This document shows, one piece after another, positions 19,218 through 54,027 of a stretch of DNA of 64,000 nucleotides. Position 1 is the stretch's first letter. Each line of letters opens with the position of its first letter. This stretch comes from Methanobacteriota archaeon (GTDB lineage Archaea > Thermoplasmatota > Thermoplasmata > SG8-5 > JAGLSY01): positions 256,001 to 320,000 of the forward strand of contig JAEHCQ010000001.1 in assembly GCA_020696385.1 (NCBI GenBank). Reading direction: 5' to 3'. The notes under the pieces are model-generated. The model did not search any database. It was not told the origin of the DNA and saw nothing but the letters and a program-made list of their open reading frames with translations. A program made the position numbers and the translations under genes.

Positions 19218-22200
19218 ATGTTAGGAGATAGAGCAGCAAATATGGGCAAGTTGATAGTTATCATTTTGAGTTTGATGATGGTGATACCATTTACCAACTT
19301 TGAAACATCAGAGAACGTAAGTGCGGGAGAGGTACTCACTGACATAACTGGAGCGACCAGAGCACATGGATTGGGTTATGACGGTAGTGGAATTACCATA
19401 GCGGAATCAGGTACTGGCCTTGATACAGGGGACAATGCCACCCTATTCATGGAATTCGCAGGGAGAGTTGACCATTGGGTTGACTGGACCGAAACAGACA
19501 CATCAGATGGAGTGGCTGAGGATTCATATGGTATGAGCACTCCATTTTTCAGCTGGATGGTTGGAGATGGATCCAGTGGTCAGTTCGATCCTGTTGATGG
19601 GAAACTCTACGGCATGGGCATGGCACCCGGAGCCCGCATAGTGAACGAGCGGGTCTTCGGCGATGGTGCAGCATGGTTCAATGGAGATATCGCGGATGTC
19701 TTTACGGATGCCAGCGAGAAAGGTGTCTTTGCTTTGACGAATTCATGGGGAGGCGGGACCATATACGAATATGCTCTCAATTCCAATAAGGTAGATACAG
19801 CAGCTAGAGATGCACAACCTGCAGTGCCAGGGGATCAGCCACTTCTCAACTTCATGGCCTGTGGCAACAATGACCTAATGGAAAGTGCCTGTGCCAAGAA
19901 CGGGATAACCATAGCTGTGGGCGAAGGATACAAACCTCACAAGAGTCTGGATGCAGATAATATTGAAGAGCTATGGGGAACTTCCGCAAGCGGATTTACA
20001 GCTGATGGAAGGATAAAACCAGACATAGCAGCCCCAGCCACATGGGGTGCTGGTGTGACCTCTCATGTTCCAGGTGCAGTCACAGGGCAAGAGGCGATAA
20101 ATGCAGATTATCAGTATAACAGTGGTTCAGGAGGCTCTGCAGCAATTGGCTGTGGTGCATCCGCAGTCTTTGCTCAGTATTATAATGATATAAATGGAGC
20201 CATACCAAGTCCAGCAATGACCAGAAATGCCATGATCAATGGAGCAACTGATATGGGAACTGCCGATATTCCGAACGCTGACGAGGGGTGGGGCAGATTG
20301 AACCTGACCAATATGATCCAGCCAGGATTCGATATTTATTATGATGATCAGAATATTCTTCTTGAGACTGGAACCAGCCAATTGTATGATACTATCTTCA
20401 TCAACAGTGTCGCACAGCCATTGAAGATCTCTTTGACATGGACAGACGTAGCCGCACCCTCGAACACAAATGCTGGAAAGGCCCTGATAAATGATATAGA
20501 TATGACAGTTATCTCTCCAAGTGGCCTGGTATACAGCAGTAACCTGTTTGTCGGGGGATGGTCAATAGCCTCCATACCATTGACAGACACGGCCAATAAT
20601 GTTGAGTGTGTCTATGTCCAGGCACCCGAGATCGGCCAGTGGAGGATATACGTCAATGGAACAGACATCCAGCAGGACTCTGTCTCAGCTACACCAGCTA
20701 CCGACCAGGACTATGCCCTCGTGGTAAGCGGAAGCTTCGATATTGGTGGCGGGCCAGTTGCCTCTGGGTATGCTGATCCCAACCCAACAAATGGCGCAAC
20801 CACCACAACAGTTTACACATCTTTCTCCGACATACAAAACGTGGTAGATGCAGAATATTTCATTGACGCTGTAGGAGCGGATGGAACTGGCACTTTGATT
20901 ACACCAACGGACGGAGCCTATAACAGCCCCAATGAGGACGGATATGCCGCAATAGACATATCTGCTGAAGGCTGGCTACCTGGAGAGATCCATACGATCT
21001 ACGTGCATGCACTGGATTCAGATGCCAATTGGGGAAATATCTATTCCATCACCATATACGTGGGTACTCAATATTACCTACACGTGGAGAACTCGATAGG
21101 ATCGGATTTGAGCCTTCAGAAGATCGAACCCGATCAACCAGTCGTGGTCTGGACCACGACTGGAGCAGTACCGGCACCCGGGCAATACCAAATAGGAACT
21201 GTTGCCTGGATGACAGATGCATATGCACAAGACACAGATATTGGGGGTGACTGGCATTTCTTCATAGATGGCGGTATCACCACAGATGATATCTCAGGAA
21301 CCCTGTATGCGAAGGTTTACGAGTATGGCACAATGACATTGCTTAATCCAACACCAACGCAATGCTCGACCGATGTAGCTGGCAGATATCCAATAATGGA
21401 ATTCACCTGGACAGATACCATACCTGCGGCCACAATATCCGCAGGTGATCGTGTATTTGTTGAGATCTGGCTGGATGCAACTGCGGGAGGGGGCGGAGCA
21501 GGCTCTTCTACCTATGATTACGTAGGAGATACAGAGGCAACACCTCCAGATTATGGATATTTCATGGACACTAACTCTTGCTCACTGGGGACTGGTCCAG
21601 ATTACAACTCGGCTCCTGAGTTCACCGATGCACAGTACATATCTGCATCGACCTCGAATGATAACTGGGCTGTCTCTGTTGATCCTGGCAACCAGGATGA
21701 GATATTCATATGGAACTCGATGGAAGTGCTGGACGATCCAGCTTATATCACCCAGATAGACCTTACCTTTGAAGGACAGGGCGATGATGACAGTGATTTC
21801 CAGATATGGGTGGAGAGACAGGCAGGAGGTGCATACTGGGAGACCGTTGGCACCAGCATGTTCGCCTCTGCCAATACAGACATAACCTTGACGAGAAGTA
21901 TAACTGTTAACCCTGGCGATTATATTGCCAGTAATAGAATAAGATGGGGTGTTTATGAGACCACATCGAGAATGGTGGTGAGTGCTGACCTTCTGGAAGC
22001 TGTTGTGCATTATGATAAGCCAGCTCCAGAGTTCATGCTTGGTTATGACAATGATTCGACACCATCAAGATTGATAATCCCTGAGGCTTCAGGGATTATC
22101 ACACCGGGGCCTGATCCATACAATATAACCATATCCGACCCGGCAGGTCCATGGCCAGCCTGGAGGTTCATTTCCTTCCCAACAAGCATCAGTGTTTCAG

Positions 22201-23384
22201 CGGCCACGATCCTGGATGATTCACTCCATGCATGGGGAGATGCGGGGATCACATGGGATGAATTGAAATGGTATGACCCTACAGACACCACAAGGCACTG
22301 GAAGACCTTCAATAAGGATTTCCCAGGAGCACCGAGCATGCCAGATCTTGACAATACCATGGGTCTATGGATACACATCACTGGCAATACGGGTGACCAA
22401 TACCTGACATTAGGTATTAGCGGTGACGATCCTCTCGATGCGGAGTTCATGCTATATGCTGGCTGGAATCTAATTGGATATCCATCACTCACCCCACAGC
22501 TGGCATCCGACACCTTGCCAGCTCAGGTGACGAAGATGGCATATTATGACATCGCCCAGCCCTATACGATCACGGATACTGTGGCACTCGACACGGTGAT
22601 GATGGCAGAAGGAAATGCATACTGGGTCTATTCAGCCTCCGATGTATTGTGGCAGGTGGATGCTCCAGCAGTTGTTCCAGATCCATACCCCGTAGTCGGA
22701 GTGGTACAACTTTATGATGGATGGTCCGGCGGCTTCTACAATCCAATGACATCCAGTGGAGGAGCCACTGTCGATGTGACATGGTTCGACAGAGGCCTGG
22801 GAGCGTGGAACACGATCTTCACAGTCACCAATGCTATTGGCCAGTACAGCGTGGATATCACGAATTACTGGGATGGCGATGTGGTATTCGTCAATGCCAC
22901 CTTCGATGCCACATACGGCAATAATGGCTACAATTACACCTATGTCAATGTAGGTATGGGTATGTCCATGCAGAATGTGGTTTGCGGTGTTCCTTATCAG
23001 CTTATGATCATCAATCCCATGGACGGTAGCTTCCAAACAGCAGGAGTTCCCTTCCCGGCGGAATATGTATTCCTGGACATAGATGGGATGATAGCACAGG
23101 GTTATTTCGAATGGGGTGATGGATTGATGGACTGGTATTCCAGTGATCCACTATTTGTCTCACCCGTACCTGGATTACCTTTCGATGGAACCAATAGTAT
23201 GTTCCCTGGAATGGGAGGTGCTACCCTGACCCTCTGGAACTTTGGCTTCCAGACCATCGAGATCTACGAGGGCTTCCCCCCAGGAAATAATTACCTAACA
23301 CCATGGGGAGAGTTCTACACAGATCCTGCTGGAACCATACCAGGATGGATGTCTGACTGGAGTATGATAATGGTCATGGTCTAA
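19218..23384 (+). CDS. Secreted S8 subtilase-like pseudoprotease, modular
   Basis: Signal peptide; S8 fold motifs (NSWG, GRIKPDIAAP, GWGR) but catalytic D/H/S replaced; SD GGAGG. Confidence 0.85.
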   Translation: MLGDRAANMGKLIVIILSLMMVIPFTNFETSENVSAGEVLTDITGATRAHGLGYDGSGITIAESGTGLDTGDNATLFMEFAGRVDHWVDWTETDTSDGVAEDSYGMSTPFFSWMVGDGSSGQFDPVDGKLYGMGMAPGARIVNERVFGDGAAWFNGDIADVFTDASEKGVFALTNSWGGGTIYEYALNSNKVDTAARDAQPAVPGDQPLLNFMACGNNDLMESACAKNGITIAVGEGYKPHKSLDADNIEELWGTSASGFTADGRIKPDIAAPATWGAGVTSHVPGAVTGQEAINADYQYNSGSGGSAAIGCGASAVFAQYYNDINGAIPSPAMTRNAMINGATDMGTADIPNADEGWGRLNLTNMIQPGFDIYYDDQNILLETGTSQLYDTIFINSVAQPLKISLTWTDVAAPSNTNAGKALINDIDMTVISPSGLVYSSNLFVGGWSIASIPLTDTANNVECVYVQAPEIGQWRIYVNGTDIQQDSVSATPATDQDYALVVSGSFDIGGGPVASGYADPNPTNGATTTTVYTSFSDIQNVVDAEYFIDAVGADGTGTLITPTDGAYNSPNEDGYAAIDISAEGWLPGEIHTIYVHALDSDANWGNIYSITIYVGTQYYLHVENSIGSDLSLQKIEPDQPVVVWTTTGAVPAPGQYQIGTVAWMTDAYAQDTDIGGDWHFFIDGGITTDDISGTLYAKVYEYGTMTLLNPTPTQCSTDVAGRYPIMEFTWTDTIPAATISAGDRVFVEIWLDATAGGGGAGSSTYDYVGDTEATPPDYGYFMDTNSCSLGTGPDYNSAPEFTDAQYISASTSNDNWAVSVDPGNQDEIFIWNSMEVLDDPAYITQIDLTFEGQGDDDSDFQIWVERQAGGAYWETVGTSMFASANTDITLTRSITVNPGDYIASNRIRWGVYETTSRMVVSADLLEAVVHYDKPAPEFMLGYDNDSTPSRLIIPEASGIITPGPDPYNITISDPAGPWPAWRFISFPTSISVSAATILDDSLHAWGDAGITWDELKWYDPTDTTRHWKTFNKDFPGAPSMPDLDNTMGLWIHITGNTGDQYLTLGISGDDPLDAEFMLYAGWNLIGYPSLTPQLASDTLPAQVTKMAYYDIAQPYTITDTVALDTVMMAEGNAYWVYSASDVLWQVDAPAVVPDPYPVVGVVQLYDGWSGGFYNPMTSSGGATVDVTWFDRGLGAWNTIFTVTNAIGQYSVDITNYWDGDVVFVNATFDATYGNNGYNYTYVNVGMGMSMQNVVCGVPYQLMIINPMDGSFQTAGVPFPAEYVFLDIDGMIAQGYFEWGDGLMDWYSSDPLFVSPVPGLPFDGTNSMFPGMGGATLTLWNFGFQTIEIYEGFPPGNNYLTPWGEFYTDPAGTIPGWMSDWSMIMVMV

Positions 23385-23414
23385 GGCCATAGTTTGAATA
23401 TCGAACATCTCCAA

Positions 23415-23452
23415 AAGGCTGGCTATCTACCGGCCAGCCTTATCTCTTTTTT
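23415..23452 (+). terminator. Hairpin plus T-tract
   Basis: AAGGCTGGC/GCCAGCCTT followed by TTTTTT. Confidence 0.65.
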
Positions 23453-23601
23453 ACCATATACCTCTGGTAAGAATGAAATGATCTTAGCTTGATAAGCAAT
23501 ATACAATTTGAATACAACAATTGTAACAATATGCATCAATGCAACAATAGTATGTATCAATATGTGGGATTAGTATTATATAATTAGCAATCATTAAACT
23601 T

Positions 23602-26600
23602 ATGGAAATAGTGGAGATGAAATTGATGGAAATAATGGGCAACAGATTTTTGGGCTTGATATTTATAGCTGTGATATCAATTAGTTTACTGATACCAGCA
23701 AGCTCGATCACTTTAGCAGATGTGAGCACGGATGATGGATATTTCTTGGTTAGTTTTTCAGAATTACCAAATGCCGACCAGAGGAATTTCATAGAGAGCT
23801 CGGGTATCGAATTCCTGAACTACATGAACGATGGTACCTATCTGGTCAAGAGCAATGGAAATATACTATCCAATGGGCCTCTTATGGCTTATTCAGATGG
23901 TTTTCAACCATATACCGCTTCAATGAAGATCAACCCAGATCTGAATGGAATGTCTGGCATGACCAATGTCATAGTGGCTCTGCATGAAGAAGCAGGAATA
24001 CCCGGAGCAATAACATCTTTAGAAGAATTGGGAGCCAGTGATATCAAGATCAATACAGGTTCCTTCGCATACCTAAGATGCACGATTGACGCATCCAGGA
24101 TCAATTTGATCGCAGATATCCAAGAGGTCAGCGTTGTTGGCCATGATGCTGAGCCAGTGGCCTTTATGGATCTAATTACATCCAATACATTCATGGGACA
24201 GGATACCACCGAGGCAGCGGGATTCACCGGTGCAGGTATACTGGCAGAAGTTCAGGACAATGGAATAGACATTGGCCACCCGGATCTCGCCAATGTCATA
24301 TACACAGATGGATCTGTATCGGATGATGATCATGGCACCTGTACCTCAGGTATCGTCTTCGGAAATGGAGATGGTGATATCAGAGCACTTGGAATTGCCT
24401 ATGAATCAGTCGGAGTTTTCTCGGACTGGGGAACTGGAAGATACACTTCCATTGAAAATCTCTGGAATGGTGATTTCAATGAAGGAAGTGCCGGGATGAA
24501 CGGTGTCGTCCAATCAAATTCATGGAGCTCCGGAACACAGGATGGACTTTATCAGATAAATGCTGCAGCGGATGATCAGGCAGCAGTGGATTATCCAAAA
24601 GTTCTATCTCTCTGGGCAAACGGTAATGGCAATGATGGGACCGCAGAGGGGGATCTCAGCGAGGATGCCTGCGCCAAGAATGTCATGGCAATAGGAGCGA
24701 TATTCCATAAGGACACCGCGAACATGGTGGATGATGAGTGGCTTTTGCAATCTCAGGGAAATACACCTTCAAGAGGCCCAGCCGCAGATGGTAGACAGAA
24801 GCCAGAGATGTGCGCGCCCTTTGACTGGATCTACACAGTGGACAACAGGGTCGGTGGCTATGCCACTGGTGATTATTATGATAATTTCGGCGGAACAAGC
24901 GGCGCGACGCCCATCGTAGCTGGCTCAACCGTAATCGCCTATGATATGTGGCAGGCGGATTTCTTTGATACAAATCCAACAGGAGAACTTCCTTATGCAA
25001 GCACGATGAAGGCCCTCATGGTGGCCGATGCACATCAATATGCATTGACAGAAGCAACAAGGAATGAACAGGGCTGGGGCACACCAGACATGGAGAACAT
25101 GTATAATCGTGGAGCTGATTACCACCAGATAGATGAATACCCACAGGCATTGGATTCTGGCGATATGTACAGCCGCCAGGTATTCAGTGATGGGACACTT
25201 TCTCTGAAAATATCACTTGCCTGGACAGACCCTGCCGCACTTGGGACCACCAATGCAGCCAGGGCATTGATCAATAACTTAGACCTGAAGGTCATATCAC
25301 CAGGCGGTGTGGAATATTATGGTAACAACGGCCTATGGACAAGCCTTTACTCCGCTTCCGGAACTGGAGCGAACCAGTGGGGCTCGGATCACAGGGATGA
25401 CCTGAACAATCTGGAAAATGTATTCATCGAGAACCCACAAACCGGTATATGGACCATCGAAGTATATGGACGAACTGGGGACATCGCTCAGGGACCACAG
25501 GATTTCTCAATTGTAGCATCAGGTGGAAAGATACCAATTACATCACAAGGAATGATCCAGCTGGATGCGGAGATATATGCTGGTGAGGACTCAGCAACTA
25601 TCACGCTCATGGATTCTGACCTTAATACAAATACAAATTCAGTAGAGACCAAGATCATCAATGTGGACAGTGATTCGGAACCAGTAGGCGAAAATATTCT
25701 GTTGACAGAAACTGGTCAGGATACTGGCATGTTCGAGGGAACATTAACATTATCAGCGACAAACTCAGCCGGAGTTTTGCAAGTATCGGATGCTGATACC
25801 ATTACCGCGACCTACAATGATGCAGATGATGGATCTGGGCCTGCCACGGTCACAGATACAGCCATCATAGATGCAGGAGTAGCAGCGATCAGTGGATTGA
25901 CAGTAGAATGGTGGGGATTGACTAATACAGAAGACATGGCATCTGATGTCTCTATCGTAAGGGGAACTGAGGTCAATGATCTCTCATTCACCTATATCCA
26001 GGATGATTCATATCATCAATTGGTGGAAGTAACAGCAGGTGGCGGTGGCAGGAAGAATCTTGATTTCCAATACACCATCAATATAGATCCAACCGGAGTT
26101 GGGCCCTACACCATCTACATGGATTCATACACGACAGGCGAAGCTTTTACAGCAACCTACAGCACCAATGGAGGAGCAAATTGGGGATCATTAGGTGTCA
26201 TTACAGCGACCTCTGATACAGATACATACGATGTTTGGCCAATAACAGCCAGTGCTGGAGACGAGGTTCTTATTGATATAACCGGAACCACTCAATCTGG
26301 AGAAGTTGTCGATCAGCTTTACACGGATCATCTTTTCATATTGGGTGGAAGTGCAAGCAACCCAACCGACCATAACACACTCAACTGGACATTGTCCGGA
26401 GATGATGGTGCAGGAGCAAATGATGTAATCCAGTACAATATTTACAGAGCCAATAATTCAGTTGGTCCATGGGGTGCAGGATTTTACATAGACAGTGTAC
26501 CTGCTGGAGAATCCACATACACGGATATTGACAAAGGAATCCCAGATGGGATCCAGTGGTGGTACGTGGTCAGAGCTGAAGACCTTCTAACCAATGAAGA

Positions 26601-27507
26601 TACCAACACAATTGCAGTGCCAGAGCCCGGCTCAGTACCCGATTCGGCACCGATCTCTTCAGCATCCTACGCTGGCGCGTCACCAACATCCAATAACCCG
26701 GTTACGATTAATTGGGCAGCCGCTGATGACAATGACCTAATACAGGTCGAATTGTTCTACAGACATGATGGTGGAGCATACGCATCTTGGACAGACGGCA
26801 CCAACCCGGCAACTGCGACAGGAACCGCGGACAGTGGTTCCTGGAGCTTTGACTTCCCGGATGGAGCTGGAACATACGACTTATACACCAGAGCGTCGGA
26901 TGATATGCCACAGACTGAGACCGCACCCGGATCACCAGATGTCACTATCCAGTATAATCCAGTACAGAATTATGACTTTGACCTTGCTGGAGCATCAGAT
27001 GGTTCATGGATATTTGTATCATTCCCATTGGATATAACGGGAGATGTCCTGACCATCATAGATGATGCGACATGGGGAGATGGCGACACGACCTGGGAGG
27101 TCATCCACTGGTACAACCCGAGTGAGGTAGATCATTGGAAGACCTATGACAAGGCACAGGCAGCAGCTGGAATAACCCAGGATATGCCGACCATTGACAA
27201 TTCCATGGGAATGTGGATAAAGATCACAACCTCTGGAACTGTATTGACAGCTGGAGAGGGATTCGAATCTGCAAGCACGAACATCGATCTAAAGGCTGGT
27301 TGGAACCTTGTTGGTTACCCAGCACAGGATGATTCAACCTACGATGTGAATGACCTGATAGCCGCAACTGGAGCGACCAAAGTTGAGGGATATGGAGGTG
27401 CTGGACCTTATGACATCTCGGCTCTGGGAGGGAATTATATCCTACAGCGTGGAGAAGCCTACTGGATCAATGTGCCAGCAGACATAACCTGGACTGTCAA
27501 CTGGTAA
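23602..27507 (+). CDS. Secreted S8 serine protease with propeptide, FN3/Ig modules and Trp-rich C-terminal domain
   Basis: EVQDNG, DDHGT, ANGN, GGTSGATP; true start may be 23617 or 23626. Confidence 0.92.
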   Translation: MEIVEMKLMEIMGNRFLGLIFIAVISISLLIPASSITLADVSTDDGYFLVSFSELPNADQRNFIESSGIEFLNYMNDGTYLVKSNGNILSNGPLMAYSDGFQPYTASMKINPDLNGMSGMTNVIVALHEEAGIPGAITSLEELGASDIKINTGSFAYLRCTIDASRINLIADIQEVSVVGHDAEPVAFMDLITSNTFMGQDTTEAAGFTGAGILAEVQDNGIDIGHPDLANVIYTDGSVSDDDHGTCTSGIVFGNGDGDIRALGIAYESVGVFSDWGTGRYTSIENLWNGDFNEGSAGMNGVVQSNSWSSGTQDGLYQINAAADDQAAVDYPKVLSLWANGNGNDGTAEGDLSEDACAKNVMAIGAIFHKDTANMVDDEWLLQSQGNTPSRGPAADGRQKPEMCAPFDWIYTVDNRVGGYATGDYYDNFGGTSGATPIVAGSTVIAYDMWQADFFDTNPTGELPYASTMKALMVADAHQYALTEATRNEQGWGTPDMENMYNRGADYHQIDEYPQALDSGDMYSRQVFSDGTLSLKISLAWTDPAALGTTNAARALINNLDLKVISPGGVEYYGNNGLWTSLYSASGTGANQWGSDHRDDLNNLENVFIENPQTGIWTIEVYGRTGDIAQGPQDFSIVASGGKIPITSQGMIQLDAEIYAGEDSATITLMDSDLNTNTNSVETKIINVDSDSEPVGENILLTETGQDTGMFEGTLTLSATNSAGVLQVSDADTITATYNDADDGSGPATVTDTAIIDAGVAAISGLTVEWWGLTNTEDMASDVSIVRGTEVNDLSFTYIQDDSYHQLVEVTAGGGGRKNLDFQYTINIDPTGVGPYTIYMDSYTTGEAFTATYSTNGGANWGSLGVITATSDTDTYDVWPITASAGDEVLIDITGTTQSGEVVDQLYTDHLFILGGSASNPTDHNTLNWTLSGDDGAGANDVIQYNIYRANNSVGPWGAGFYIDSVPAGESTYTDIDKGIPDGIQWWYVVRAEDLLTNEDTNTIAVPEPGSVPDSAPISSASYAGASPTSNNPVTINWAAADDNDLIQVELFYRHDGGAYASWTDGTNPATATGTADSGSWSFDFPDGAGTYDLYTRASDDMPQTETAPGSPDVTIQYNPVQNYDFDLAGASDGSWIFVSFPLDITGDVLTIIDDATWGDGDTTWEVIHWYNPSEVDHWKTYDKAQAAAGITQDMPTIDNSMGMWIKITTSGTVLTAGEGFESASTNIDLKAGWNLVGYPAQDDSTYDVNDLIAATGATKVEGYGGAGPYDISALGGNYILQRGEAYWINVPADITWTVNW
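26614..26956 (+). repeat. Near-identical Ig-like module DNA, copy 1 (partner 30957-31299)
   Basis: Collinear at offset 4343 with long identical stretches such as ACAGGTCGAATTGTTCTACAGACATGATGGTGGAGCATACGCATCTTGGAC. Confidence 0.9.
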
Positions 27508-27524
27508 GCGAGCGAAAGCAAAAT

Positions 27525-27546
27525 GAGAGAGCTTTCGGGCTCTCTC
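27525..27546 (+). terminator. Identical terminator hairpin, copy 1 of 3
   Basis: GAGAGAGC-TTTCGG-GCTCTCTC then T-rich tract; identical at 31871 and 35993. Confidence 0.75.
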
Positions 27547-27743
27547 AAATTTTACATTTTTTATCAAATATTATATCGTATTTATCACGTAATTTAAAAA
27601 GTTATATATACTACATACCAAAAAGCTTAACTATAAATAAATCGATGTGGAATTACAAACATATATACAAATATATACAAAGATCGTTGGAGTGATGTGG
27701 GCAACATTCACTTTATCGTTGGAGAGAATGGAGGAATTCTAAA

Positions 27744-31847: not shown

Positions 31848-31870
31848 GCAGCTAACGAAGCAAAATAAAT

Positions 31871-31892
31871 GAGAGAGCTTTCGGGCTCTCTC
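31871..31892 (+). terminator. Identical terminator hairpin, copy 2 of 3
   Basis: GAGAGAGCTTTCGGGCTCTCTC. Confidence 0.75.
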
Positions 31893-32117
31893 AACTTTTA
31901 TATTTTTATTCAATATCTTTAACATACGAAACACTTTAATAATAGTAAACCAAAAATATTTTATACCAAATTATTAACTGGACGAATCATGCAACTAATT
32001 ATTTATACCATGTTAATCATTTATTTTATATCCTATATGCAGTGAACATATTATCTACAGTTTACATTTTCGGGCATTTGCTAAGGCCCCTCGATGTGTA
32101 GGGAAGGAGAAGGTAAA

Positions 32118-35100
32118 ATGGAATTTAAAAAATTGAATATCATGGGTGTTTTGATATCGATCATAATCGCTATCAGCATGGTGATGCCGGTAAGTCTAGC
32201 CACGGATAATGATCAGAAAGCGTATACTGACGTGGAGGACATATACTATATTGATTTCACTGGGCCAGTCCTCGAGGAATGGTCCGACGCCCTGGACAAC
32301 ATAGGTGTGAATGTTATCACCTATGTTCAGGGGAAAGGCTATGAGGTCAAGATGACGGACGCGAAAAAGACAATTGCCGAGGCATTGCCATATGTCAAAT
32401 CCGTAATTATCCTGCCAGATGATGCAAAGATATCGCAAGACATAGCTACAAATGGAAATGATGTTGCCATATCCTTGATGCAATCCGCCAGTATGATGGA
32501 CACCGTGCAGGAGATAGCGAATTATGTCGATGTCTTACAGGAAGGAGTGACATCAAATGGCTATGTCGTAAGAGGAACATTGAAGGATGTGGGAGTGTTG
32601 AGCACACTGGCATCTTTTAAGGATGTTCATTACATTTCACCACACATTGAAGATGAACTCAAAGATGAAGCTGGCATGCAACAAATTGGTGGCTTCCTTT
32701 GGGTTGATGATCCGGATAATGATCCCGACACACCATACAGAGACACAGGAGGCGGATTCGGAACATATGTCAATCATCTGGGATGGACAGGTGATGGAGT
32801 TATCGTGGGTATTGCGGATACTGGTTTAGGCGACGGAACCACTGGAGATGCTAACCATATTGACTTTGAGAATCGAGTGATCGGTGGAACTGAATATGGA
32901 GCTGGTGACTGGGCAGATGGACATGGTCATGGGACACATTGTGCAGGTCTTATAGTTGCTAATGGTTTCGAAGGAACAGGTGTGACTCACAGTGGATTCG
33001 GCAACTACTACGCTGGAATGGGATTGGCATATGATGCTGAAATATATGCACAGAAAATATTCACTGATGCTGGCGGTTGGTCTGGTCCAGCAGATTATTA
33101 TACAATTTTAGAAGATGCTCAAAGAGCTGGCGTGATGGTACACTCTAATTCATGGGGTGCTTCAACATATGGATCATATGATGGTCATGATGAAGCATAT
33201 GACCATGCGGTCAGAGATGCGGATGACAATGCAGCTGGAAACCAACAATTGATAATCACCGTTGCTGCGAGCAATGATGGATCAGGGACCAATACCATAG
33301 GCAGCCCTGGTAATGCGAAGAATGTTATAACCGTAGGAGCAACAGAGAATTACTGGCCAGATATGGCTAACTATGGAAATAATATTGATCCAAACACAGA
33401 TGCTGACAATCCTGATCAGATCATTGATTTCAGCTCAAGAGGCTGGACTGATGATAACAGAATCAAGCCAGATGTGGTCGCAGCAGGTTCTGGAACACTT
33501 TCTCCCCGTTCTACAGATGCTTCCATAGATTGTCTTTATGGAACTTACGACGATGATAACAGATACGAATGGTGCTCTGGAACATCCCAAGCCAACCCAA
33601 CAGTGGCTGGCGGTGTTGCAGTGATATACGAATGGTATCTGGCCACATACGGTCAGATCATAACACCTTCCATGGCCAAGGCATTGACAATAAACACAGC
33701 AGTGGACATTGGCGCAGCGGACATACCAAACAGAAATGAAGGGTGGGGAAGGATGTATTTGCCCACGATGATGGATCCTCCTGCACCATTTATCTTAAAG
33801 GACGAAGTGGGGGAATTAACAACAGGCGTGACAGATTCCTTCACATTCTCATATGCTGATGCATCAGAGCCAGTCAAGATCACTCTGGCATACACAGACC
33901 TATATGCACTGGATGGTGCGAACCCAACGCTTCAGAATCAAGTTAACCTTGAAATAGAAAGTCCATTGGGTGACATATACCATGGTAATGCATTCGCAGC
34001 TGGCTGGACACCGGCAAATACAGATCCGCAAGCGATTTGGGATACCACAGGGGATGGATATGATAATGTGAACAATGTAGAATGTGTTTACATACCACCG
34101 GGAAGTCTTCAAGTTGGCCAGTATACAGTCAGGGTCATTGGAACTAACATACCGGCAGATTGTGATTTTGATGGATCAGATGACCAGGATTACTCACTGG
34201 TCATTTACAATGGACTGGACGTATCAAGCACTGGAACTTGCGACCTGGATGCCCCCTTATACATGGGTGAGGACACAGCAACCATCACGGTGAAGGATGC
34301 TGACCTGAACACAAATGTAGCAGTCCAGACACATGGCATAACAGTTGACAGCGACACAGAACCAGGTGGAGAGAGCGTGACACTTACAGAGACCGGTGGG
34401 GACACTGGCATCTTCGTTGGAACGATCGATCTATCATTAACTGATGCAATTGGTGATCTTCATGTATCGCATGGTGACACAATAACCGCAACTTACACTG
34501 ATTTGGACGATGGCTTTGGTTCTCTGCAGGTTGTTACAGATACAGCTGTGATAGATGCCCAGGTCGGACCACCATCCAGCCTCACTGTCGATTGGTGGGG
34601 TGTGTCAAGTTTGACACTATTGGATGATGATGTCGAAGGTGGAGACCTCGGCTATACAACAGGAGGGGACCTGGAGAGCTTCGCGATCCGAACATTGGGT
34701 TCAAACTCTGGTGCCAGCTCCTGGGACTTCGGCAATGGCAATTATCAAGAATCTGGTGGAGAGAACTCGTGGCTCATAACACCGGCCTTGGCAATACCGG
34801 CCGGTGCGACCTCTGCTTCTCTGAGCTTCTGGCATTGGTGGGACTTCGAGACCACCAACTGGGATGGTGGTAATCTAAAGATATCCACCACAGGTGTTGG
34901 AGGCGCATACAGCTTGATGACCCCAAGTGGAGGACAGGCATATACTGGCACTATCCAGACAGGATACAATAATCCTATGGCGGGTCAGCAGGCTTGGACC
35001 AATGCCCAGGCAAGCTTTGTGGAATCCACCTTTGATCTATTTGCATATGCAGGACAGACCGTGCACATCAAATGGGATGCTGGAGTGGATGATTATGCCA

Positions 35101-35972
35101 CTACAGATGCTGGATGGAGAATTGATGATATCCTCGTCCAGGCGACTGGAAGCGGTGCGAACAATGACAATCTGCTCAACTGGACACTGTCCGGAGATGA
35201 TGGTGCTGGAGCCAATGATGTTGACCAGTATAACATATACAGATCAGCGGACAACCCTACAGGCCCATGGGTCGATGTAGCTAGCGTTCCAGCAGGAACC
35301 GATACCTACACAGACGCAGGCCGCGGTGAGTTCGATGGAACCACATGGTGGTACATCGTGCGCGCGCAGGACGCTGTGGGAAATGAGGACACTAACAACA
35401 ATGCAGTGCCAGAACCTGGTGGAGTGGCAGCAGTTCCATATGACATCGACACTAGCGCGGCCGCACCAGGTGATTGGGTCTTCGTATCCTTCCCTATAAC
35501 AGCGTCTGGAGATGTACTAACAGTTCTTGATGATGCGAACTGGGGCAATGGTGACACCACATGGGAGATCGTTAGCTGGTACGATCCGGTAGACGCAGAT
35601 CATTGGAAGACCTATGACAAAGCACAGTTCGCTGCAGGATTGGCGCAGGATATGCCAACCGTGGACAATGCGAAGGGTATGTGGGTGAAGCTCACAACAG
35701 CAGGATCACTCCTGAGTGTTGGAGAAGGACAAGAGCCAACAACCACAGATATCACTCTGAGCACTGGCTGGAACCTAATAGGCTATCCCGCCCAGGATGA
35801 TTCAACCTACGATGTTGGTGATCTGAAGACAGCGACAGGTGCGACCATGGTTGAAGGTTACGGTGCTGGACCATACAATATCGTCACACTCGCAGACAAC
35901 TATGTCTTGCAGCGTGGAGAGGCGTACTGGGTCAAGGTCGGCAGTGGAACAGTATGGACTGTGAACTGGTAA
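32118..35972 (+). CDS. Secreted S8 serine protease with MAM/InhA-like jelly-roll insert
   Basis: IADTG, HGHGTHCAG, AASN, SGTSQANP; LSFWHWWDFE..WDGG..GWRIDDI module; ATG 32118 after GGAGAAGG. Confidence 0.93.
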   Translation: MEFKKLNIMGVLISIIIAISMVMPVSLATDNDQKAYTDVEDIYYIDFTGPVLEEWSDALDNIGVNVITYVQGKGYEVKMTDAKKTIAEALPYVKSVIILPDDAKISQDIATNGNDVAISLMQSASMMDTVQEIANYVDVLQEGVTSNGYVVRGTLKDVGVLSTLASFKDVHYISPHIEDELKDEAGMQQIGGFLWVDDPDNDPDTPYRDTGGGFGTYVNHLGWTGDGVIVGIADTGLGDGTTGDANHIDFENRVIGGTEYGAGDWADGHGHGTHCAGLIVANGFEGTGVTHSGFGNYYAGMGLAYDAEIYAQKIFTDAGGWSGPADYYTILEDAQRAGVMVHSNSWGASTYGSYDGHDEAYDHAVRDADDNAAGNQQLIITVAASNDGSGTNTIGSPGNAKNVITVGATENYWPDMANYGNNIDPNTDADNPDQIIDFSSRGWTDDNRIKPDVVAAGSGTLSPRSTDASIDCLYGTYDDDNRYEWCSGTSQANPTVAGGVAVIYEWYLATYGQIITPSMAKALTINTAVDIGAADIPNRNEGWGRMYLPTMMDPPAPFILKDEVGELTTGVTDSFTFSYADASEPVKITLAYTDLYALDGANPTLQNQVNLEIESPLGDIYHGNAFAAGWTPANTDPQAIWDTTGDGYDNVNNVECVYIPPGSLQVGQYTVRVIGTNIPADCDFDGSDDQDYSLVIYNGLDVSSTGTCDLDAPLYMGEDTATITVKDADLNTNVAVQTHGITVDSDTEPGGESVTLTETGGDTGIFVGTIDLSLTDAIGDLHVSHGDTITATYTDLDDGFGSLQVVTDTAVIDAQVGPPSSLTVDWWGVSSLTLLDDDVEGGDLGYTTGGDLESFAIRTLGSNSGASSWDFGNGNYQESGGENSWLITPALAIPAGATSASLSFWHWWDFETTNWDGGNLKISTTGVGGAYSLMTPSGGQAYTGTIQTGYNNPMAGQQAWTNAQASFVESTFDLFAYAGQTVHIKWDAGVDDYATTDAGWRIDDILVQATGSGANNDNLLNWTLSGDDGAGANDVDQYNIYRSADNPTGPWVDVASVPAGTDTYTDAGRGEFDGTTWWYIVRAQDAVGNEDTNNNAVPEPGGVAAVPYDIDTSAAAPGDWVFVSFPITASGDVLTVLDDANWGNGDTTWEIVSWYDPVDADHWKTYDKAQFAAGLAQDMPTVDNAKGMWVKLTTAGSLLSVGEGQEPTTTDITLSTGWNLIGYPAQDDSTYDVGDLKTATGATMVEGYGAGPYNIVTLADNYVLQRGEAYWVKVGSGTVWTVNW

Positions 35973-35992
35973 GCAAAAGACCAAAGAAAAAT

Positions 35993-36014
35993 GAGAGAGC
36001 TTTCGGGCTCTCTC
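35993..36014 (+). terminator. Identical terminator hairpin, copy 3 of 3
   Basis: GAGAGAGCTTTCGGGCTCTCTC. Confidence 0.75.
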
Positions 36015-36394
36015 CCATTTAACTTTTTATTTTTTCAAACTTTTACAAATAGTATAGGGGTTGATCCGTTCTTGAACTTTAGCCAGTAACTATTGTTAAA
36101 TGATGAGGGGGGGAAAAATATATATATGAATGATAGAAAAATATATATACTATAATAAAATGATATTATAAATAATTTTCATTCTTTTGAATTCAAACAA
36201 ATTAACAATATCATATCAAAAATTATATATATGCCAAATGGAAACATATATATAGTAAAAAAAACTCATAATATTTTAAGTGAATACTTATTTATAGCCC
36301 TATATCCAATATATATTTTTAACTTCGAAATCAAGATTTGAGATTAATAAAAACAATATCACATATTTTTTGTGATATCTTGGAGGGAGTAGGA

Positions 36395-39300
36395 ATGGAT
36401 ATAATGGGCATGCATACAAATAAGAAAATTGGAGCGAGCATATTGATCACCATGATGCTACTGGCATCACTTACAGGACTTATCGGATCAGGTGTTATGG
36501 ATTCGGATCCATTAGTGAGTGCTGAGCCGATCGACCTTTCACGGCAGATAACCTCAGACAGGATACCTATGAAAACTGGAAGCACTGTTTTGGATTCCAC
36601 ACCTGGGATAAGACAACTGACCGAGTACAGAGCGGATTATAAAGCAAGTGAGGGAGAAAATGTCATATTGGCAGCAGCAGAACCTCTGCAAATTAATTCC
36701 TTATTCCCGGATGTGGATACAGGAAGAACCGTTCTGCTTGAGATAGCATCTGGAATTGACAATGGTTCCTTCGTACCAGCGTATCTATATGCAGGTAATC
36801 AGGCCGCGGCTTATTCCAGAAATGATGTCGCACTCATGGAGCTGAACAGCTGGATGGATGGAAATATTGTCGCTGCAACCTACTGGGGATTGCAGGACAA
36901 GGAATTCGCTCCAGGGGAGTTCAATTGGCTTCTTGGAGGAGATCCAGCAGATGATGCCGCCATGAGGGAATATTATACAGCTCCTTATGGTCTGGACACC
37001 TTCCCCGCTTACCTTAATTCAGATACAGCAGGAGATCCAAATGATCTGATGAATGCTGGTGGTTTCGCAATAGACGGTGGATTTGCTGGAAAATACGACG
37101 GCAGTGGTGCTTTTTATTCAGATTGTGATTCAACTTCAACAGGAAGATGGGATGGCGCAGGAGGTGCAGTTCCAGAGTTCATTCAAGATGACCTGGACGC
37201 GAGGATCGCGACACCAAGTGATCTGACAATGACATTGAATGGTTCATATGACGATGTACTTGAGGAGGGAACTTTCTCATTGGCTATATCATCAATTGGG
37301 AACATGGGAGACCTTGGTTATGATTCAAACAAGTTCGTTACCACTTTCTTCATAGTTGATGATTACAACACTGTGGTTACCAGGAACAATGCCCTGGGGC
37401 CAACAGGTCCAGGATACACTGTCAAGGATTATAACATAAGATATTCCATGCAACAGTGGGTGGGAACTGATGAGGCACTTGATGGTTCACTAGACAGCAG
37501 AGGTGAAACGGTAACCTATCAGGACGTGGCCTTCTCCAGGAACCCGACAGTTAGAGCTGCAAATCTCGGCGGAGGGGCGATGCCCGCATGGAACCTGAAT
37601 GAACTGGGTGTCATAGCCGCGATATACGATGAAGAGACAATGGAAGTTCACCAGGCAGTTTACTATGACTTCGCAGACAATACACCAGATATTGCCATTC
37701 AGGCTACAGATGTTTCATACGGTCTACCACCGGTAGCGGTGGTCAATGAGACTGTGTTTGGTCCTACTTCAGTTGGCCAGACTACCTTCAATATAGGGTA
37801 CACTAACATAATCGATTGTACTCTTTACGTTGATGAAGATGAATTCGCTTCAACACCCTTCGACTGGTACAAATTATGGGAGGTCGGAGCTGGTGGCTGG
37901 GATGATTACACATTGGACTATGACACTGGTGACGTTTACCTAGAATACGAATGGTGGGCGGACACATCATACATCCACGGATGGCTCAATTATTCCGCAA
38001 CACCAAATAGTGGAGATATTGTTCCGGTTCACATATCGATCGATAATGCCGGGCGTTCATCTTCAGGATCAAATGTCAATGTAGGTATCTATGATGGAGA
38101 CCCGACCAGTGGTGGTGCTTTATTAGGTACACACGATGCAGGGGTCATGGCCTCTGGATCCACGGTTGATTTCACATATAATTGGGATTCCACAGGATAT
38201 CAGGGATACTACTCACTATGTATAATCCCAGATTATCTGGATGCAATATCCGAGTCAAATGAGAACAATAATATTGCTCCTGTGGACGTGTATATCGCAC
38301 CACCAATGGATGTCGGAGCCTTCGCGATCAGTTCACTGGTCGACCAGGCCACATATGAATGGGGGCCACGAAATATCAATGCCAACATTGGGAACATGGG
38401 AACAACATCTCAAGGACCCTTCCCGGTAAAGATCGAGATCAATCATCTCGGTTCTACCACATACCTACTCAATGATGATTGTGAAAGTGGAATACTACCA
38501 GGTTGGACACCAGATGGACCAGTCGCACCTGGCTGGGATCTAAGAGCTAATGCAGCCAACAGTCCTGCAACATCATGGGACTTCGGAGACGGTAATTATG
38601 GGGCTGGACCGCATGATTATAAACTGGAATTCGGACCTTTCGATCTGACAGGGGCTTTCACAAGTGCGGAATGGAAATGGTTCCATAACTACGATTGGGA
38701 AGCTGGCTGGGACGGTGGAGTTCTGGATGTCAGTGCCGATGGAGCCGCATGGACAAGGGTCGTATCGGCCAATGGCTATGATGCGGCTTTGGGAACTGGA
38801 TACTTCAATCCGATCGATGGAGATGCGGGTTCTGATGCTTTCACTGGGGCCAGTGGAGGATTCGTGGAGGATTCTGTGGATCTGACACCATGGCTTGGTG
38901 ACGGGACAGTCTGGGTAAGATACTGGGCTGGTGCTGATGATTTCGCAGGTGGAGGAACTGGCTGGAATGTCGATGATATCAGAATATCGAAGAAAACTGC
39001 TGCAGGTGGTTCTTTATTCACAGATGTCAAGGACACCACCCTCACACTGGGTCAGGGCGAGGGCGAGGAGATGACCTGGAACTATGACTTCAATGATGAG
39101 GCAGAATACCAGATATCTGTGATGACCATGCTACCAGGAGATGCAGTTGCAACCAACAATGAATCTGTTGTGAACATCTTCACCATGAACAGCATGCCGC
39201 CAGGACCAGCGACCGATGTGGCAACAGAGGTTGGAGGATCAGGCGGAGCCAGTGTGTACCAGCAGACCACGAGCGACATTGCTGTTGAGAACAACGGTGG

Positions 39301-41758
39301 AATCATAGACCATACCCGGACACATATGCCGGTTGACGGAACATCCGAGCAGATCGTGGAAGCAGTAACTCCCCCAACTCCGGATACCTGGAACAACTAC
39401 ACTGTGGCTTCAGATATGGCTGTTGAAGGAACAGTCACAAATGACTGGTCTTTCATCGATGAGAATCCTCCAACAGGAGACACCGAGACCATCGAGGAAG
39501 TACTCGGTCCTGCCTTGGTCAACATTATAAATGGCGAATCCTTTGAATCCGCCTGGCCAGCAGGCTGGACGGTCGGGGGCGCCTGGACAAGAAGTGCCAT
39601 TGTGACACCTCCATATCACTTAACCGTAAATGCGGAGTGTGATCCAGATTCAGGAGCTGGCGACCTCACCACTAATATAATGGACACATCCAGCTACGAC
39701 CCTCTTCAGTTGGATTTCGGATATATCGATTCAGGTGTAGAAGCTGGTGAAGGAACTGTCTGGGCTTACACAAGCACTGCAGGTGGTACATGGGTGCAAC
39801 TTTTAGATGCAAATGGAGCAGCCACGTTCACAAAATACAGTAATACCTGGACCTTTGGAGCAAACCCAGAATATTTCTGGACAGGATTCCAACTTGAATT
39901 CAGGCTGGGCGGTGCACAAGGCAATGACGAATGGGCCATTGATTATGTTTGGCTCAATGGTACGGGCGTCGGCGCACCTTCACTCGAGCACAAGTGGACA
40001 ACCGACAGCATCCCGGCAGGATATGATGCATTGAATCTCTACGTAAGGGGTCTTTCATCAAACCCGGCAGATGATGTCTTCAGTGTGTTCTGGTCAAACG
40101 ATGATGTGTCATACGCAGATACTGGAATCAACATAGACCAGGCTGGAATGTCAACATATCCATCATACAGTTTCCCACTTGGAGAATCTGGGGTATTGTA
40201 CATACAGGTCATTGATGACAATACCGGAGATGCTGTTTTGACAACATGTGAGATCGACTCGATACGGCTTGAGTGGTATGAGAATACAGCAACACCAGCG
40301 TCTTACAGCCTGGAACACCAATGGCAGTTCGAGGACGTAACAGCAGCAGACAGCCACACCTTCCACGCCTTTGTTGGGTGGGATGGTGCAGGAGCGGGCG
40401 ATGATACATTCGCCTACTATGGCTCTGCCACAGGTGCATTCGCAGGTGAGGAATTCCTGATGTTCACGGACACCACAGCGGCAATAGACGAATACACATA
40501 CCCACTGGGTGCCGGATACACTGGTGCTTTCTATGTAATGGTGGAAGATACAGCCACAGGAGATGCTGAAGACACTGTTTACATAGACACGATGTATGTG
40601 GATTCCGCAACCGGCGGTCTTGGAACGGCCAATGATATCGTACTCAGATGGACTCTATCATCAGACGATGGAGCAGGAGCGGACGATGTTATTGGTTATG
40701 ACATCTACAAGGCAGATGCAGCAGTAGGCAACTACTACGAAGGCGCATATGTACTTGAGACAACCATACCCGCTGGCACGAACAACTTTATTGACACCAA
40801 TGAGGCACTGGACCCAGAGAACTGCTGGTACTACGTAGTTGCTACAGATGGCACATACGATAGTGTGGCATCAGGAATCGTGTCCAAGTTCGACACACTG
40901 CCCGCGGCCATAAATGTATTAGCAAACGGAGTGACACCACTCAGTATATCGATAGGAACAGGCATTATCACCCTGACCGCGGATATACTGGACAATACCA
41001 CCATTGACGAGAATGTATTCCCATTCCTGATAGGAGCGGAATGGTTCGACACTACCGATCCGGGTGTTGGTTTGGCCAATGCAATAGCCTCTCCAATTGA
41101 TGTGTTCTGGGATGGACCTCTAGATAGCATATCTGTGGTCATTGATACATCAAGCTGGGGAGCTGGCGATCATATCGTGAGTGTTCGTGGTAGATCACCA
41201 AATGGTTGGGGACCTGTAACTACGGTTACAGTCACCGTATCAGCACCAGAATATCTGATACCTGTGGTAGCTGGATGGAACCTCGTATCGCTTCCATTAT
41301 TGCCTGGAGATACATCTCTGCCAAATGCATTGATGGATATTGACGGAGATACTACCTGGAACATGTTCCATCACTATGATGGAGCTGCAGCCTATCACTG
41401 GAAGACCTACAACTCGGCCTTCCCCGGACTTAACCACAATTACGTGGATGAGGAAATGGGAGCTTGGATATTCGTGGACACTGTGGGAGATGGCTTCATC
41501 AAGGTAACTGGCACAGATCCATCAGGTACTACGATAAACCTGGTGGCTGGCTGGAACATGGTCGGCTTCCCATCGCAGGTCGAGGGATATACCGCAGGTG
41601 ATCTGAAGACGGATTCCGGAGGATTGGTCACATCGGTGGAGCGCTTCAATGGAGCAGCAGCCTATGATATCGAAGTCATGCCGGACATCGACCAATTCCA
41701 GATCGGTGAGGGGTACTGGGTGTTCTCCACAGGAGCATATATCTGGACAATACCTTAG
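36395..41758 (+). CDS. Large secreted non-protease modular protein (Omp28-like, CARDB, jelly-roll, FN3, Trp-rich C-terminal domain)
   Basis: Signal peptide after SD GGAGGGAG; ISESNENNN CARDB motif; same FN3 (WTLSSDDGAGADDV) and GWNLVSLP/GWNMVGFP domain as the proteases. Confidence 0.85.
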   Translation: MDIMGMHTNKKIGASILITMMLLASLTGLIGSGVMDSDPLVSAEPIDLSRQITSDRIPMKTGSTVLDSTPGIRQLTEYRADYKASEGENVILAAAEPLQINSLFPDVDTGRTVLLEIASGIDNGSFVPAYLYAGNQAAAYSRNDVALMELNSWMDGNIVAATYWGLQDKEFAPGEFNWLLGGDPADDAAMREYYTAPYGLDTFPAYLNSDTAGDPNDLMNAGGFAIDGGFAGKYDGSGAFYSDCDSTSTGRWDGAGGAVPEFIQDDLDARIATPSDLTMTLNGSYDDVLEEGTFSLAISSIGNMGDLGYDSNKFVTTFFIVDDYNTVVTRNNALGPTGPGYTVKDYNIRYSMQQWVGTDEALDGSLDSRGETVTYQDVAFSRNPTVRAANLGGGAMPAWNLNELGVIAAIYDEETMEVHQAVYYDFADNTPDIAIQATDVSYGLPPVAVVNETVFGPTSVGQTTFNIGYTNIIDCTLYVDEDEFASTPFDWYKLWEVGAGGWDDYTLDYDTGDVYLEYEWWADTSYIHGWLNYSATPNSGDIVPVHISIDNAGRSSSGSNVNVGIYDGDPTSGGALLGTHDAGVMASGSTVDFTYNWDSTGYQGYYSLCIIPDYLDAISESNENNNIAPVDVYIAPPMDVGAFAISSLVDQATYEWGPRNINANIGNMGTTSQGPFPVKIEINHLGSTTYLLNDDCESGILPGWTPDGPVAPGWDLRANAANSPATSWDFGDGNYGAGPHDYKLEFGPFDLTGAFTSAEWKWFHNYDWEAGWDGGVLDVSADGAAWTRVVSANGYDAALGTGYFNPIDGDAGSDAFTGASGGFVEDSVDLTPWLGDGTVWVRYWAGADDFAGGGTGWNVDDIRISKKTAAGGSLFTDVKDTTLTLGQGEGEEMTWNYDFNDEAEYQISVMTMLPGDAVATNNESVVNIFTMNSMPPGPATDVATEVGGSGGASVYQQTTSDIAVENNGGIIDHTRTHMPVDGTSEQIVEAVTPPTPDTWNNYTVASDMAVEGTVTNDWSFIDENPPTGDTETIEEVLGPALVNIINGESFESAWPAGWTVGGAWTRSAIVTPPYHLTVNAECDPDSGAGDLTTNIMDTSSYDPLQLDFGYIDSGVEAGEGTVWAYTSTAGGTWVQLLDANGAATFTKYSNTWTFGANPEYFWTGFQLEFRLGGAQGNDEWAIDYVWLNGTGVGAPSLEHKWTTDSIPAGYDALNLYVRGLSSNPADDVFSVFWSNDDVSYADTGINIDQAGMSTYPSYSFPLGESGVLYIQVIDDNTGDAVLTTCEIDSIRLEWYENTATPASYSLEHQWQFEDVTAADSHTFHAFVGWDGAGAGDDTFAYYGSATGAFAGEEFLMFTDTTAAIDEYTYPLGAGYTGAFYVMVEDTATGDAEDTVYIDTMYVDSATGGLGTANDIVLRWTLSSDDGAGADDVIGYDIYKADAAVGNYYEGAYVLETTIPAGTNNFIDTNEALDPENCWYYVVATDGTYDSVASGIVSKFDTLPAAINVLANGVTPLSISIGTGIITLTADILDNTTIDENVFPFLIGAEWFDTTDPGVGLANAIASPIDVFWDGPLDSISVVIDTSSWGAGDHIVSVRGRSPNGWGPVTTVTVTVSAPEYLIPVVAGWNLVSLPLLPGDTSLPNALMDIDGDTTWNMFHHYDGAAAYHWKTYNSAFPGLNHNYVDEEMGAWIFVDTVGDGFIKVTGTDPSGTTINLVAGWNMVGFPSQVEGYTAGDLKTDSGGLVTSVERFNGAAAYDIEVMPDIDQFQIGEGYWVFSTGAYIWTIP

Positions 41759-41782: not shown

Positions 41783-41812
41783 GGGGAAGGTTCCAAGCCT
41801 TCCCCCCTTTTA
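41783..41812 (+). terminator. Hairpin plus T-tract
   Basis: GGGGAAGG/CCTTCCCC followed by T runs. Confidence 0.65.
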
Positions 41813-41943
41813 CTTTATTTTTACTTTTATTTATTACTGCCTTCCAGATAGGAGATGGATATTGGATCTATTCAACTGGAGTATATCCGTGGATGATACC
41901 CTAACCTTAACAGATTTATACCCGCCTCTCTATTCCACTTCCA

Positions 41944-44876: not shown

Positions 44877-47111
<2,235 letters not shown>

Positions 47112-48974: not shown

Positions 48975-48975
48975 C

Positions 48976-50253: not shown

Positions 50254-50341
50254 TCTTTATTCCTCCTCTTTTTATTTTCTCTCGATATTCATTATTTTTT
50301 GGATATGTATATCTCATTCCTTAACGGGTAGGGCAATAGCC

Positions 50342-52276: not shown

Positions 52277-52447
52277 GATAATCAATCCTCTGTCTATTCG
52301 ATACTATTTTCAAACCCCCCTTTAACTGTTAATTAAAGGTTATCTATGCTAAGATATCACTGGGTAAAGTAAAAGAGGTTATTAAGAGTTTTTATTAAAC
52401 TCTTAATAATCTATAACTTTCTAAGAAAAATATTTAAAATGAAAGGT

Positions 52448-52474: not shown

Positions 52475-52484
52475 TTTATCTGTT

Positions 52485-53974: not shown

Positions 53975-54027
53975 GGGAGATGATGATGAAGAAGACCCTC
54001 GTCCAAAGGGCAAGGGTCTCATACACC

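Follow-up and report, generated by a model that had tools for sequence, protein, structure and literature searches.

A Trp-rich domain shared by five tandemly encoded exported proteins of a Thermoplasmatota archaeon, and its possible role in cell-surface retention

Extracellular peptidases are the reason why uncultured benthic Thermoplasmatota are regarded as protein degraders. The DNA analyzed here (the window) is a stretch of 64,000 nucleotides from an archaeon of the Thermoplasmatota order SG8-5 (contig JAEHCQ010000001.1, positions 256,001 to 320,000, assembly GCA_020696385.1). At 19218..41758 of the window, on the plus strand, lie five co-oriented open reading frames (ORFs) of 1388, 1301, 1367, 1292, and 1806 amino acids (aa), called genes 1 to 5 below, and all five contain a Trp-rich domain of about 170 residues. 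The region is most likely a tandem array of separately terminated paralogues, comprising one predicted pseudo-subtilase, three apparently intact S8 subtilases, and one CARDB/MAM protein that looks non-catalytic. A sequence-only reading of the window had described five neighboring secreted proteins, three of them proteases bracketed by two apparently non-catalytic members, and our analysis agrees with that description. The Trp-rich domain itself is a candidate module for holding such proteins on the cell, and most of what follows concerns it.

Gene 1 (19218..23384, plus strand) encodes a putative exported pseudo-subtilase of 1388 aa, in which a signal-like N-terminus is followed by a degenerate Peptidase_S8 domain (19611..20294, plus strand), an internal copy of the Trp-rich domain, and a tail of two beta-sandwiches. 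Its S8 region was located by a partial Pfam match (profile positions 74-288, E 2.4e-9) and by triad alignment. When the four protease domains are aligned, Gly stands in gene 1 at all three positions of the catalytic Asp, His, and Ser. Because of these substitutions and the partial profile match, gene 1 is classed on sequence as an S8 homologue but a pseudoenzyme. Genes 2 (23602..27507, 1301 aa), 3 (27744..31847, 1367 aa), and 4 (32094..35972, 1292 aa), all on the plus strand, are predicted to encode exported S8 subtilases with intact triads, and gene 4 also has an InhA-like MAM domain. Asp, His, and Ser are kept in all three, within D-[TN]-G, H-G-T, and G-T-S-x-[AS/N]-x-P, which we take to be the S8 catalytic motifs. 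The PF00082 matches have E values of 8e-32 for gene 3 and 1.3e-41 for gene 4 in the Pfam scan, and 5.5e-20 for gene 2 in the genome-wide search. The family match and the triad motifs together assign genes 2-4 to the S8 subtilases by sequence. The closest solved relatives of gene 2 are Protein Data Bank (PDB) entries 5fax (subtilase SubHal of Bacillus halmapalus, E 2e-28) and 1wmd (named “protease”, E 2.3e-28). Like genes 2-4, these S8 subtilases with C-terminal extensions combine a full triad with a downstream beta-rich extension, but the array proteins are much longer, modular, and end in the Trp-rich domain, and gene 1 has no triad.

The product predicted for gene 5 (36338..41758, plus strand) is exported, measures about 1790-1806 aa, and contains CARDB and MAM-like domains. 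The TTG listed as the start codon probably lies too far upstream; the likelier start is an ATG at 36395, which is preceded by GGAGG. Pfam, NCBIfam, and phmmer searches against PDB gave no catalytic-domain match in this protein; its first ~500 aa matched nothing in these searches and had no usable match in the ESM Atlas. Genes 2, 3, and 4 are paralogues along their whole length (28-46% identity), and most of gene 1 can be aligned with them; the resemblance among the five genes is not chance, because the proteins are paralogues. Each of the five proteins has one hydrophobic segment (a 19-mer with a Kyte-Doolittle mean ≥1.6), which is N-terminal in every case, and no C-terminal one. Export and signal cleavage are predicted from these segments; signal and helix calls here and below are threshold-based and do not come from a trained predictor. 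The PGF-CTERM model TIGR04126 had no match genome-wide, so the earlier observation that these proteins have neither a C-terminal transmembrane helix nor a PGF-CTERM anchor was borne out.

Each gene is followed by a terminator-like hairpin on the plus strand. The hairpins after gene 2 (27525..27546), gene 3 (31871..31892), and gene 4 (35993..36014) are one identical GC-rich 22-mer, followed by a T-run after genes 2 and 3 and by T-runs after gene 4. Different hairpins follow gene 1 (23415..23452, with a T6 run) and gene 5 (41783..41822, with a T-run, ahead of an archaeosine synthase gene). The spacers of the array are AT-rich (25-32% GC) and contain TATA-like boxes. Because of the hairpin and T-run after each gene and the character of the spacers, the array most likely represents five transcription units and not an operon. 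Tandem duplication, with a separate terminator-like hairpin for each gene, accounts for the adjacency of the genes. With one or two changes, the 22-mer hairpin also follows three further genes for proteins with the Trp-rich domain elsewhere in the genome (C47:89460; C47:145980, minus strand; C50:28663), so that the 22-nt hairpin and T-run lie 3' of six genes ending in this domain. Genes 2 and 3 are 63-92% identical over their last ~400 residues, where 61-87% of conserved residues use identical codons, compared with roughly 20-70% (mostly 20-50%) in upstream windows. This high identity and codon sharing suggest that the 3' cassette and its terminator were recently copied or homogenised, and the two seem to move or homogenise together. 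The array is conserved with varying membership, judged from sequence matches: a genome of the same genus has seven matching places on one strand within about 27 kb, one of which is a gene 1 orthologue including the tail.

Alignment and profile search place the Trp-rich domain at 22131..22661 in gene 1 and at the extreme C-terminus of gene 2 (26980..27504), gene 3 (31323..31844), gene 4 (35445..35969), and gene 5 (41249..41755), all on the plus strand, with profile E values of 1e-72 to 4e-89. Aligned over about 175 residues, the five copies share 34 invariant columns; identity between the gene 1 copy and the other four is 31-39%. When 17 copies from this genome are aligned, 13 columns remain invariant, most of them W, Y, G, N, or P. 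The bipartite build that had been read from the letters, C-terminal in four proteins and internal in the first, is thus confirmed, and it reflects a tandem duplication of a ~80-residue unit (lobe 1 against lobe 2, HHalign probability 92%, E 5e-7). Each lobe has the pattern GWN-x-[IV]-[SG]-x-P, then an aromatic residue, then G-x-[AG]-YW[VI], and the usual protein end is W-[TV]-[VI]-[DN]-W. AlphaFold2, run on the gene 3 copy with a 17-row alignment, predicts two small alpha/beta lobes with a mean predicted local distance difference test score (pLDDT) of 90.1 and a predicted template modeling score of 0.83.

The domain is an uncatalogued family, with no relative in Pfam, NCBIfam, or PDB and no clear fold match. 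Even at E ≤10, the five isolated copies had no Pfam-A match. In the five array proteins the domain is covered by no NCBIfam model, and the 17-copy profile found nothing meaningful among PDB sequences; a designed Kelch-like protein matched over 45 profile positions only and was taken as spurious. Foldseek of the domain model against PDB returned nothing at E ≤0.001. Against viral models it returned a single weak row, a “putative hemin binding protein” of an uncultured marine phage (E 0.027, TMq 0.52). The nearest ESM Atlas clusters of the domain are unnamed “hypothetical protein” sets.

This genome (2.28 Mb, 94% complete) has 17 domain places by profile search and an 18th, divergent copy when the HMMER bias filter is off, giving at least 18 carriers over seven contigs. 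All carriers have a single N-terminal hydrophobic segment. Beyond the array they include two S8 subtilases, one M14 carboxypeptidase, two M28 aminopeptidases, two FG-GAP/beta-helix proteins, one SBP_bac_5 binding protein, a 953-aa protein whose sole Pfam match, to Big_7, is weak, and one of 709 aa without a Pfam match. The largest are two adjacent giants with open frames of 8,661 and 8,676 aa (C11:82622-134607, minus strand, about 52 kb together), which contain Big_1, Big_2, DUF11, and VWA domains. After the Trp-rich domain each giant continues for 96-111 residues and closes with a hydrophobic helix and basic residues. In 13 of the 17 carriers found by profile the domain ends 0-4 residues from the protein end; the exceptions are gene 1 (internal), the SBP_bac_5 protein (directly after the signal), and both giants (before the anchor).

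A survey with a hidden Markov model of the domain had been proposed as a check, and it found the domain to be widespread, with varied fusion partners. Against 1.84 billion cluster representatives there were 12,585 matches at E ≤1e-3, 4,836 at E ≤1e-10, and 1,053 at E ≤1e-30. Partners in other genomes include sialidase, PKD, CARDB, glycoside hydrolases, and phosphoesterases. A scan of species representatives with one narrow peptide pattern gave 501 confirmed matches, and the best 80 of these (76 distinct loci) are all in Thermoplasmatota-type metagenome-assembled genomes, including Candidatus Proteinoplasmatales SG8-5 and Methanomassiliicoccales UBA147 and UBA280. The domain matched in 25 of 201 sampled genomes of the phylum, in 28 of 31 relatives, and in all 21 genomes of the same order (this genome included), which have 1-58 places each. 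Bacterial matches are weaker but full-length. In RHS proteins of Anaerolineae/Ardenticatenaceae the domain is N-terminal (about residues 26-370). RHS-type proteins of Gram-positive bacteria have their wall-binding modules at the N-terminus. The domain is therefore a genome-wide and lineage-wide tag and is not specific to the array.

The position of the domain raises the possibility of a sorting signal, which a dedicated export or processing machinery would recognise before cleavage or covalent attachment, as with the type IX C-terminal domain of Bacteroidota. Besides the 13 of 17 carriers in this genome, 134 of the best 150 database matches end no more than 10 residues past the domain. The ending W-x-[VI]-[DN]-W is conserved, with W as the last residue in 111 of these 150, and the domain is found on dozens of unrelated exoproteins in a genome, proteases and adhesins alike. 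The type IX tail (Por_Secre_tail, PF18962/TIGR04183) likewise has an extreme C-terminal position, a conserved ending, and dozens of diverse secreted hosts per genome, proteases among them. The Trp-rich domain differs in being twice as long and two-lobed, and it also occurs N-terminally, internally, and in 2-5 tandem copies. In some bacterial proteins it lies upstream of PF18962, and neither PF18962 nor TIGR04183 matched over the array C-termini in the Pfam and NCBIfam scans. Six of the 16 non-C-terminal cases among the best 150 run from the domain through a 67-92-residue low-complexity tail into a helix and an Arg/Lys-rich end. Such internal, N-terminal, tandem, and pre-helix copies argue against a sorting signal, as do the Sec-type N-termini already present on all carriers. 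Type IX secretion needs an outer membrane, and we know of no second membrane that would have to be crossed in this lineage, which also weighs against sorting.

When ORFs within 3 kb on either side of the 76 related loci were clustered, no recurring partner or machinery gene was found, which also counts against sorting. The commonest neighbor was a STAND-like ATPase of ~980 aa, encoded directly downstream of a domain-bearing gene at nine of the 76 loci (L075:3480-6419 and eight others); otherwise the neighbors were further carriers or peptidases. This genome has two exosortase/archaeosortase-family genes (C50:13670-13960, minus strand; C22:18664-19320, plus strand) despite having no PGF-CTERM match. 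To our knowledge, such enzymes act on helix-bearing signals, which the array proteins lack; proteins that end in a helix and a basic tail, for example the giants and the solute-binding proteins, may be their substrates. We consider a sorting signal improbable. The narrower proposal of a sorting pathway dedicated to the array is not supported, given the reach of the domain beyond it and the origin of the gene cluster by tandem duplication with separate hairpins.

Terminal modules on enzymes that are encoded side by side also recall the dockerin-cohesin system of cellulosomes. By this analogy a scaffold, perhaps the helix-anchored giants or proteins with the gene 1 tail module, would gather the enzymes into one proteolytic complex. 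Two membrane-anchored giants do carry the domain beside their anchor. At least three architectures combine the tail module (236 aa, 22674..23381, plus strand; 236-240 residues follow the domain) with the Trp-rich domain, and some single open frames of relatives hold two or three copies of the tail. Elsewhere in this genome the tail occurs in a 1,124-aa protein on C50, before a divergent Trp-rich domain, and as a fragment on C18. Its model shows two tandem Ig/macroglobulin-like beta-sandwiches (pLDDT 79), for which Foldseek lists the macroglobulin domains of C3 and A2ML1, the C-terminal region of transglutaminase 3, and SlaB (E about 5e-6, TMq about 0.3). The tail is present in 14 of the 31 genomes searched. 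It was not found in seven of the 20 other same-order genomes, which have 1-35 Trp-rich domain places, and for this reason it cannot be a general receptor. This distribution and the ordinary beta-sandwich fold of the tail led us to reject the idea that these extra ~230 aa are the general partner of the domain.

Cohesin (PF00963) and Dockerin_1 (PF00404) had no match in this 94%-complete genome, while both models were positive in control genomes, and the Trp-rich domain has no Ca-binding dockerin repeats. The carriers include binding proteins and adhesins and are not the enzymes of one pathway, so the domain is used far beyond one enzyme set. The five array genes are separately terminated paralogues, and no scaffold was identified. 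A prediction of a two-copy complex of the domain scored 0.00 against a mark of 0.42, and, having been run without controls, it speaks neither for nor against binding. A dockerin-like assembly tag is therefore very doubtful in our judgment. The sequence-only reading had offered a cellulosome-like proteolytic complex of the five genes; that suggestion is not supported, given at least 18 carriers over seven contigs, thousands of matches elsewhere, and the lack of cohesin, dockerin, or a recurring partner gene in the searches above. It had also proposed a tag for surface attachment or assembly. The attachment half fits the spread over exoproteins, the complementarity with helices described next, and the position ahead of anchors; the assembly half finds no cohesin or dockerin.

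Among the 19 signal-bearing S8, M14, M28, and SBP_bac_5 proteins of this genome, nine have a helix only (C- or N-terminal), nine have the Trp-rich domain only, one has both, and none has neither. The nine S8 proteins divide into three with a helix only and six with the domain only, the two M14 proteins into one of each, and both M28 proteins have the domain only. Of the six SBP_bac_5 proteins, five have a helix only and one has both. The M28 family has three further matches, which lack a signal and appear to be cytoplasmic. This complementarity with membrane helices inside enzyme families is the strongest argument for retention. Three other observations fit: in helix-bearing carriers the domain lies just ahead of the anchor, a foreign SBP_bac_5 protein (P0238) ends in the domain without a C-terminal helix, and the bacterial RHS proteins have it at their N-terminus. 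Solute-binding proteins must stay at the cell to serve their ABC (ATP-binding cassette) transporter.

From the domain with its duplication, distribution, fusion partners, and complementarity to anchors we infer binding, a ligand, and retention. The Trp-rich domain would then be a non-covalent cell-surface retention module, a reading for which we hold belief and doubt to be about equally balanced. Proteins would first be exported by Sec and their signal cleaved, after which the domain would keep those without a helix on the cell. Through the domain they would all bind a common component of the envelope, for instance a glycan, a glycolipid, or a further surface protein. In this way peptidases, binding proteins, and adhesins could act at the cell surface instead of diffusing into the sediment.

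The domain could instead bind substrates or particles, like a carbohydrate-binding module or an adhesive, and would then target enzymes to detrital polymers or mineral surfaces and not to the cell. Its conserved positions are rich in aromatics, and it is fused to many hydrolases (peptidases, sialidase, glycoside hydrolases), as such a module would be. Its presence on solute-binding proteins and beside membrane anchors does not agree with this role, and neither does its complementarity to helices inside the same enzyme families. One module on such different enzyme classes also speaks against a specific substrate. We regard substrate or particle binding as unlikely.

Several points weigh against cell-surface retention. 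A crude genome-wide census left 37 frames (at least 400 aa, signal-like start) that have neither a helix nor the domain. Roughly a dozen of them look like cytoplasmic proteins miscalled as signal-bearing, and a second shared C-terminal tail, unlike the Trp-rich domain, closes 13. The census is too crude to serve as proof of complementarity. The N-terminal segments could be uncleaved anchors, in which case a retention domain would be unnecessary. A strict C-terminal position and a conserved last residue are equally typical of sorting signals. Helix and signal calls depend on a hydrophobicity threshold only, and binding and ligand are proposed from sequence, as is the function. The fold is uninformative as well: the best hit of a wide structural search with VIA was to RCK_C/TrkA_C domains (Z 5.2, root-mean-square deviation 3.0 Å, 68 residues, lobe 2 only), and this Z is within the range that the tool calls common for models without a relative.

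Portable anchoring modules are familiar from Gram-positive bacteria. The SLH modules, CWB2 of Clostridioides difficile, and GW of Listeria are non-covalent wall or surface-layer (S-layer) modules that are repeated, placed on many paralogous and unrelated exoproteins (proteases and adhesins among them), usually terminal, and used in place of a membrane anchor, and the Trp-rich domain resembles them in all of this. It differs from SLH, CWB2, GW, and LysM in matching no Pfam or NCBIfam model and no known fold, and its binding is proposed here. Unlike the Gram-positive hosts of wall modules, this archaeon belongs to a lineage for which we know of no wall polymer. PGF-CTERM/archaeosortase signals and helix anchors occupy the same niche, holding archaeal exoproteins on the cell, and the same enzyme families in this genome use either a helix or the Trp-rich domain. 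PGF-CTERM is a short tripartite signal, whereas the Trp-rich domain is a folded unit of 170 residues with no hydrophobic helix and no PGF motif. The proposed role is of a known kind, a portable anchoring or sorting tag of exoproteins, and the module itself is an uncatalogued family without a fold relative.

A broader proposal, which we put forward more tentatively and with doubt outweighing belief, is that the domain belongs to an undescribed archaeal surface-display system. A folded, non-covalent tag in this Thermoplasmatota order, and thinly in other archaea and some bacteria, would replace membrane helices and archaeosortase signals. Much of the exoproteome (one partial genome has as many as 58 places) would be held by it on an envelope component specific to the lineage, and the tag would spread as a 3' cassette together with its terminator hairpin.

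Whether enzymes are cell-bound or released decides who gains from hydrolysis in sediment. We know of no mechanism described in this lineage by which these archaea hold proteins at the surface. An uncatalogued domain on S8, M14, and M28 peptidases, adhesins, and a binding protein is a concrete, clonable handle on surface retention, and it clearly merits a Pfam family of its own and a structure solved with ligand. M14A, M26, M28F, S8A, and U69 are given as the dominant extracellular peptidase families in “Ca. Proteinoplasmatales” (PMC9123169). The words “anchor” and “S-layer” do not occur there, and anchoring is not mentioned (PMC9123169). Literature searches with the motif strings GWNLIS, GWNLVS, GWNLIG, GWNLVG, and GWNMIS found nothing in the library searched, and titles and abstract openings on surface, secreted, or anchored proteins of Thermoplasmata contain nothing on the domain.

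The second C-terminal tail ends in ...EGIYQATITF-x-IGYY and closes 13 exported proteins, 12 of them in one 41.5-kb head-to-tail array. These proteins are encoded at C11:425030-466573 (plus strand) and C11:356263-358446 (minus strand), about 105 kb beyond the window end. The genome therefore has at least two alternative tail modules for helix-less exoproteins.

The array lies among housekeeping genes of an archaeal host, as its neighbors indicate. Downstream is the archaeosine synthase gene (NF040592, E 1.9e-140), and genes for ribosomal protein L15e and a CobW/HypB-type GTPase lie upstream. Tricarboxylic acid cycle and ATP-citrate-lyase genes follow further downstream; at 44877-58933 (minus strand) the window encodes a monomeric isocitrate dehydrogenase, both ATP-citrate-lyase subunits, aconitase, succinyl-CoA ligase, a two-subunit fumarase, and a LarA-like protein. 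A 1462-aa ORF at 9576-13964 (minus strand) has no Pfam match and sits in a stretch whose composition is strongly skewed (AT skew down to -0.41), and it adjoins a gene for a zinc-ribbon protein at 13975-15363 (minus strand).

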